This document shows positions 21,189-21,297 of a stretch of 64,000 nucleotides of DNA, in pieces. Under the pieces are notes generated by a model. That model was given only the letters and a program-made list of their open reading frames with translations. It was not told the origin of the DNA and searched no databases. Source of the stretch: Eledone cirrhosa. Its lineage: Eukaryota. Position 1 is the stretch's first letter. Each line of letters starts with the position of its first letter. The position numbers were made by a program, and so were the translations under genes. The DNA is taken from the NCBI GenBank assembly GCA_964016885.1, contig OZ024747.1, positions 78,430,001 through 78,494,000 on the forward strand, read 5' to 3'.

Positions 21189-21231
21189 ACAATATTACAT
21201 AAATGGAAAACTATATTTATAAAACCATATT

Positions 21232-21297
21232 TATTTCATTATATATATTTCGGGGATATCATATTAACAATATGCTATGCCTTCATCAGACAAAATA
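21232..21297 (-). ncRNA. Minimal type I hammerhead ribozyme, array copy 1
   Basis: Minus strand reads TATTTTGT-CTGATGA-aggcatagcatattgttaatatgatatcccc-GAAA-TATATA-TA^-ATGAAATA. Stem I is 8 bp with two G-U pairs, stem II is CATATT/AATATG plus ATA/TAT and GG/CC, stem III is the palindrome TATATA. Predicted cleavage between 21240 and 21239. Confidence 0.8.

Follow-up and report, generated by a model that had tools for sequence, protein, structure and literature searches.

The array ending at position 21189 belongs to an EN+ Penelope-like element (PLE) with two fixed 3' ends, of which this is the short one; motifs and (TA)n target, rather than a tree, make the element a candidate new member of the Hydra clade. 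Most insertions of this element consist of two arms joined head to head, and nearly all of those with classifiable ends combine one short end (site A) with one long end (site B). The explanation that we consider probable is that both nicked strands of a (TA)n tract prime on a single uncut RNA, in a coupled manner and at two internal sites set by the protein.

Layout of the array in the window

Here, the window denotes the whole 64,000-nt stretch of DNA analysed, and the genome searched amounts to 3.0 Gb. Element positions are counted on the minus strand; +1, the base that directly follows the predicted hammerhead cut, is 21239 in the terminal copy of the array and 25249 in the next unit. The relevant features are the following:

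20853..21189, no strand: (TA)n target tract at the 3' junction
21188..21190, minus strand: short end (site A), +50 to +52, with a TA common to element and target
21190..34440, minus strand: tandem array of about 3.3 head-to-tail units of 4010–4011 bp, identical except for one A-run
21232..21297, minus strand: predicted minimal type I hammerhead of the terminal copy, with the predicted cut between 21240 and 21239
21367..21383, minus strand: self-complementary hairpin (−144 to −128), a frequent stop and head-to-head joining point of genomic arms
22849..25065, minus strand: open frame of 738 aa (ATG at 25062, i.e. +188) with telomerase-like RT, CxCX5C linker and C-terminal GIY-YIG
25105..25197, minus strand: tail (+53 to +145) in an internal copy; site B, the long end of other genomic copies, corresponds to 25109 (+141) or 25105 (+145)
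26860..29076, minus strand: open frame, copy two
30871..33087, minus strand: open frame, copy three
12929..13254, both strands: diverged sister insertion, head to head, with the long end of its left arm (minus) at 12929 (+137), the short end of its right arm (plus) at 13254, and TA runs flanking both sides

The last element-specific base at the array end is +50 (21190), and +51/+52 (TA) overlap with the (TA)n tract. On the other side, the array is 5'-truncated at about 34440, where it joins a short TA run, and the inverted partner arm is absent.

An earlier note on this DNA, made from the sequence alone, had described the ends at 21189 and 13254 as homologous and had placed the 3' end about 50 nt past the ribozyme cut. 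Both ends are indeed present and align at one point, 50–52 nt past the predicted cut and inside (TA)n. What was called a related fragment occupies 12929–13254 and is a head-to-head insertion, of which the short end at 13254 had been read correctly and the left arm end at +137 (12929) overlooked. The description of the ends was also incomplete, as a second, equally common end (+141/+145) and its pairing with +52 had been missed.

Encoded protein, predicted hammerhead and clade

The model of the 738-aa protein (pLDDT 90.7) has telomerase reverse transcriptases (TERTs) as its best structural matches (Foldseek, VIA: Z 16.0, rmsd 4.2 over 299), and the predicted structure of residues 614–716 resembles the I-TevI catalytic domain (Z 9.7, rmsd 2.2 over 88/92). 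Across 86 homologs, YRDD and the nuclease residues Y618, Y631 and G633 are invariant. The protein also contains an RWR motif (RWK-like) and a DKT motif, of which D119 and K120 are invariant among homologs, together with a CxCX5C linker and, in the nuclease, CxxC and CxH (recognized by eye against the text of PMC8557442). The only protein relatives bearing a name come from Argonauta, and sequence searches of Pfam and PDB with the 738-aa protein were blank or trivial.

The predicted hammerhead comprises a CUGAUGA core, an 8-bp helix I, a long helix II whose sequence differs between subfamilies with the stems kept, GAAA, a 2-bp helix III with a palindromic loop, and an extra base before G10.1-C11.1. 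Conserved core, helix I of 8 bp, helix III of 2 bp and palindromic loop all fit the minimal PLE hammerhead described by Cervera 2014 (PMC4209133). Since such minimal motifs are described in that source as cleaving poorly as monomers, an uncut template would be the default, cleavage here being a prediction. In Rfam, neither the window nor the pLTR matched a hammerhead family, the only returns being microsatellite-driven miRNA noise, and the minimum free energy fold of the array copy differs from the hammerhead fold.

Features of EN+ PLEs are thus present: RT and GIY-YIG in one frame, tandem or partial-tandem and inverted pLTRs with a tail, and a minimal type I hammerhead motif in the pLTR. Naiad and Chlamys were considered and rejected, as the nuclease is C-terminal here and N-terminal in these groups, and a hammerhead motif is present here, whereas they carry no canonical one. 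Hydra-clade PLEs, as described by Craig 2021 (PMC8557442), share the C-terminal GIY-YIG, the RWK-like motif (RWR here), DKT, CxCX5C, CxxC and CxH, the hammerhead and insertion into (TA)n, which is the target of nearly all members of the clade. However, they are generally shorter than 3 kb, against a unit of 4.0 kb here, and the tail of 89–93 nt exceeds the 30–40 bp stated there for PLEs in general. Unlike the present analysis, the available text of that study gives no junction statistics for the clade.

Two fixed ends in a (TA)n target

A 35-nt core pattern has 3,020 exact matches in the genome, and end positions were determined for 95 of the 100 matches at the top of the list, which all lie on contig C1; the sample thus comes mostly from one chromosome and was picked by exact patterns. 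Within it, 43 of the 95 core-anchored copies end at +52 (site A) and 40 at site B (24 at +141, 16 at +145). The other 12 comprise three that read into the frame, four that reach B after a small indel, four that end at most 6 nt from A or B, and one that ends at the cut. The defined internal start proposed in the earlier note is accordingly borne out by fixed classes of junctions, as opposed to random scatter; an internal start past the ribozyme had already been largely published. Genome-wide, we counted 1,492 exact junctions of +52 with TA (0 for the reversed control), 2,068 site B junctions, with the sister subfamily counted in, and 97 exact read-throughs.

The (TA)n target is equally clear, as a TA run follows 80 of the 83 ends at +52, +141 or +145, against 4% of window positions. 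By contrast, the suggestion that TA microhomology determines the site does not hold. Used sites share 2–3 nt with the target, and longer matches, namely the 5-nt TA matches at +28, +58, +87, +132 and +175 and a TA run of 8 nt at the cut, see little or no use, so that position rather than homology likely sets the start sites. Moreover, 11 of 14 haplotype groups contain +141 as well as +145 ends; site B therefore looks as if it were picked anew at each insertion.

The family is young: arms mostly differ by 0–1, the frame is intact and exact core matches exceed 3,000. At several loci (L050/L051, L154, L166, L174, L187 and L311), young copies abut or sit within TA runs of older sister-family insertions, so that earlier insertions act as targets.

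Pairing of the two ends

Pairing was scored on 168 complete, de-duplicated two-armed insertions, a set that excludes one-armed loci and loci running off the retrieved stretch and includes some diverged sister copies. A–B pairs make up 154 of them, i.e. 154 of the 157 with both ends classifiable; two are A–A (L056 and L303), one is B–B (L317) and 11 have one unclassified end. A second set, of 56 sites chosen by their A end alone, yielded a B partner at 48, an end at +130 at one, no partner at seven and an A partner at none.

The geometry of the arms is variable. Among the 154 A–B insertions, the A arm extends further 5' in 64, the B arm in 51, and the two lie within 20 nt of each other in 39. 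Twenty B arms consist of the tail only or halt just beyond A, and stops of several B arms lie at +33 to +44, just past site A. Arm lengths are nonetheless correlated (Spearman 0.60, n=102), and short-arm stops pile up at −150 to −121 (81 stops), around a 6-bp hairpin. A transcript 5' end at −141 was considered as the source of this pile-up and rejected, as second-pass stops show no pile there; likewise, a non-autonomous palindrome mobile as a unit was rejected, as inversion points vary among copies.

The two arms of one insertion carry concordant haplotypes in 69 of 73 cases, against 46% expected. With A and B arms on one haplotype, site A lies inside an RNA that continues to B. Two RNAs transcribed from a single source locus, or conversion of one arm by the other, could give the same sharing. 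Private variants occur in a single arm in 45 cases and in both arms in nine, which is expected from later mutation and is no proof of a single molecule.

A literature search, with subscription papers mostly outside its reach, retrieved neither strict A–B pairing nor the mini-loop products described below. Earlier publications already cover initiation at two internal sites, uncleaved RNA as a template, a tail on one side and the preference for (TA)n.

Templates of long arms and mini-units

We examined 85 read-through sites (genome count: 97), of which 69 continue for at least 640 nt into the frame, 14 (at nine loci) stop early and two are cut off by the retrieved stretch. Three of the early-stopping loci consist solely of repeats of a unit of about 190 nt, which begins a little downstream of the hammerhead cut and extends into the first codons of the frame. 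At L207 (G000:C22:9579.7k-9581.1k), the unit runs from +8 to +202, and its seven junctions (five of the A arm, two of the B arm) are all identical; a genome-wide search for this junction gave no other occurrence. L208 (C2:346.281M; +21 to +209) and L225 (C4:248.600M; about +21 to +201) likewise have a private junction in both arms. These mini-units lie wholly downstream of the predicted cut and end 56–64 nt beyond site B. Five other early-stopping loci show single joins from +310 to +409. Single jumps were found at L250, L303, L305 and L307; at L303 at least, the following pass lacks the join, so that jumps also occur.

Arms longer than one unit (up to 1.84 units elsewhere, 3.3 in the window array) pass the cut site without a scar. 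In 58 two-pass arms, spread over 19 haplotype strings, the predicted cut site is intact in all 58, the passes are identical over 188 nt in 40 and their haplotype agrees in 50; passes differ on average by 1.4 positions over these 188 nt, against 5.7 between insertions. The earlier note had held that the cDNA crosses the cut site, and this is supported by these 58 internal passes and by a predicted cut context intact in most sampled copies. It had further required an uncleaved, religated or circular template, or a template jump. For crossing after 50 nt, uncleaved RNA suffices, as would be expected of a minimal hammerhead whose helix III has 2 bp, and religation, a circle or a jump is not needed. 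We rejected the idea that cleaved linear RNA usually serves as the template, as few arms stop at the cut (five short-arm stops in +0 to +9, like adjacent bins, with TA homology there as a confounder). One locus (L089:1290-1830) carries, in one arm only, a 14-nt stretch over the predicted cut site three times in tandem, which suggests polymerase slippage at this site.

A closed-loop template is the simplest account of the mini-units, the scarless crossing of the cut and the identical passes, and we give a covalent circle about an even chance. Just as plausible in our view, the long arms and the window array may go back to multimeric linear transcripts, to a series of template jumps or to unequal recombination at a later time, rather than to a covalent RNA circle. 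Single, non-repeated jumps do exist, and the longest loci could serve as masters for such transcripts. However, this reading has to accommodate the seven identical L207 junctions spread over both arms, as well as the intact cut sites and identical passes seen across 19 haplotype strings. Furthermore, the window alone contains at least two exact read-throughs 4 kb apart (an exact pattern, by which variants like L096 and L100 go undetected), and it carries the rarer G at +42, whereas the nine long-arm loci checked carry T, one of them with an additional G copy. Four runs of one study, with fixed differences from the window, contain the long end, and the three mini-unit junctions are not among the joints listed for them; two of these runs show another joint, from about +11 back to about +230. 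None of these runs was counted as evidence.

Proposed mechanism and alternatives

What the genomic copies display are two end classes flanked by TA, one end of each class per head-to-head pair, haplotypes shared between arms and private junctions repeated in them. From these we infer that both strands of (TA)n are nicked, that a single uncut RNA is primed at A and at B, that the two cDNA ends become joined and that looping takes place. In the mechanism that we favour, the GIY-YIG domain would nick both (TA)n strands; one 3'-OH would then prime at A and the other at B, with a pairing of 2–3 nt and a position fixed by the protein. Both cDNAs would extend toward the RNA 5' end across the uncut hammerhead, the B cDNA either stalling behind the A complex or displacing it. 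The two cDNA 3' ends would be joined, often at the −144/−128 hairpin or via short homology, followed by fill-in. On closed or end-to-end joined RNA, copying may pass its start point and produce arms longer than one unit, such as the window array, whose B arm would have been lost or be too short to detect.

Some observations run against this mechanism: the window array and seven of the 56 A ends have no B or partner arm, and the three insertions noted above break the pairing rule. Moreover, in the bulk data reported by Frangieh 2024 (PMC11167929), top and bottom strands show no difference in start site and there is no homology to the cut DNA.

The alternatives account for part of these data. 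One cDNA primed on RNA at B might fold back and be copied, site A being a nick or stop in a DNA intermediate (by self-priming or endonuclease resolution; PMC3846280, PMC8557442). The many inversion centres on a small hairpin, where the 81 short-arm stops fall, and arms on common haplotypes are what this would produce. However, a B cDNA cannot yield an A arm reaching further 5' than its B arm, as in 64 of the 154 insertions, an A cDNA cannot provide +53 to +145, and 20 B arms barely or never overlap the A arm. Since either arm can be the longer one and these 20 stop so early, simple fold-back of either cDNA is excluded for most copies; the reading is already contradicted for them, and we regard it as very unlikely overall. 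Even more improbable is that the ends are inherited, with master transcripts running into (UA)n and annealing to the TA target so that no internal start takes place. TA does follow every genomic end, and read-through transcripts would therefore bear (UA)n. Yet the A and B arms of one insertion share a haplotype, which places A within an RNA reaching B, +141 and +145 coexist in most haplotype groups (11 of 14), and mini-unit loci end inside the unit without a TA run.

A less remote, though still unlikely, alternative involves two separate RNAs of one source locus and an asymmetric complex, one half of which would have to start at A on its RNA and the other half at B. This would account for strict pairing and, with no need for strand displacement, for overlapping arms, and haplotype concordance would follow if one master were active per cell. 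On the other hand, three loci have a private mini-unit junction in both arms, the one searched genome-wide (L207) being unique, several B arms stop just past A (+33 to +44), and arm lengths correlate.

A further extension of this single-RNA mechanism is conceivable, although we lean slightly against it: reverse transcriptases primed by the two target nicks at the two fixed sites might copy one closed RNA loop in a twin rolling-circle fashion, which alone would yield the one-sided tail, the inverted pLTR and the tandem units. If so, the loops of about 190 nt (+8/+21 to +201/+209) would represent the minimal protein-bound RNA after hammerhead cleavage, and would show how a coding element can give birth to non-coding repeats.

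Families 2 and 3

Two further families in the window have ends of a similar kind:

810..1136, both strands: family 2 insertion; the minus arm carries a predicted hammerhead of its own and has its short end at 810 (+59), and the plus arm is tail only, with the long end at about 1136
39523..39601, no strand: family 2 remnant; short arm end at +63, opposite arm end at about +194
13311..13522, no strand: hairpin insertion of family 3 that contains a hammerhead core; its long end lies at 13311, its short end at about 13522

Family 2 (1,133 pattern matches) has a long helix II, a tail of about 160 nt and arms that often stop near −107; its ends (n=30) comprise 14 short, 11 long and five others. The ends at 810 and 39598 had been reported as homologous points, which is true to within a few nucleotides: 810 corresponds to +59 of its own predicted hammerhead, and the end near 39598 is a +63 variant, 4 nt further out. 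Family 3, which has a longer helix III, was retrieved with a 27-nt pattern (15,907 genome matches); its short and long ends lie about 70 nt apart, and all six inverted pairs found among 24 loci are short–long.

Comparison with known systems

In LINE-1 twin priming, both target nicks prime on one RNA and generate an inversion, one primer being placed at the poly(A) end and the other at a chance internal site. Here, by contrast, each of the two sites has a fixed internal position, and overlap of the arms is usual.

A biochemical parallel is the Poseidon protein PAc of the green anole, which in vitro nicks and extends both strands, uses two internal starts that define the tail and does not need hammerhead cleavage (Frangieh 2024, PMC11167929); PAc requires RNA to +172 and starts at 111–118 of its frame. 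Two internal starts downstream of the hammerhead, use of unprocessed RNA and a need for RNA beyond the start sites are thus common to both systems, being deduced here from genomic copies. PAc belongs to another clade, its target is 5'-ATT rather than (TA)n, and no priming homology is reported for it, against 2–3 nt here. As far as the available text of that study goes, it left untouched the pairing within one insertion and closed-loop templates.

Head-to-head arms, palindromes at the inversion point and partial tandems are also described for inverted pLTRs with a one-sided tail (Arkhipova 2013, PMC3846280; Schostak 2008, PMC2377424). These accounts treat the tail as optional and the inversion as self-priming, whereas here exactly one arm bears the tail in 154 of 157 insertions and arm geometry speaks against fold-back. 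Inverted copies with a one-sided tail have similarly been read as nuclease resolution or self-priming (Craig 2021, PMC8557442; Arkhipova 2013, PMC3846280). A circular template for PLEs was proposed by Cervera 2014 (PMC4209133). Animal non-LTR retrozymes (PMC7229834; bioRxiv 10.64898/2026.07.22.740005) also form tandem copies, with a proposed origin from circular RNA and a borrowed RT, likely that of a PLE; however, the element described here is autonomous, and its mini-units lie wholly downstream of the cut and contain no hammerhead core. In the available text of an octopus repeat annotation (PMC13282606), PLEs are merely counted.

For pseudo-LTR regeneration, Schostak 2008 (PMC2377424) saw no obvious mechanism beyond tandem formation. 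Base-exact starts, the pairing rule and natural mini-loops make the mechanism by which PLEs form their tail, inverted repeats and tandem pseudo-LTRs testable. A reverse transcriptase that starts inside its RNA on both strands of a microsatellite cut would also be of interest as an insertion tool.

Other features of the window

A dispersed repeat of about 190 bp is present in many copies (5060-5191, 8843-9029, 20629-20810, 35598-35775, 36828-37016, 38285-38463, 41332-41524 and 41782-41975), two of which are mutually inverted at 41332-41975. There are also minisatellites with periods of 24 bp (43225-50080), 42 bp (50534-51692), 22 bp (52451-52759) and 66 bp (55020-55927), and a near-perfect palindrome of 105 bp lies at 60092-60196. 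Finally, a 296-bp direct repeat of 96% identity (3429-3723 and 4782-5077) surrounds a 324-aa stop-free frame (3946-4920, minus strand), and the two together (3429-5077) are possibly another pLTR-bounded element.
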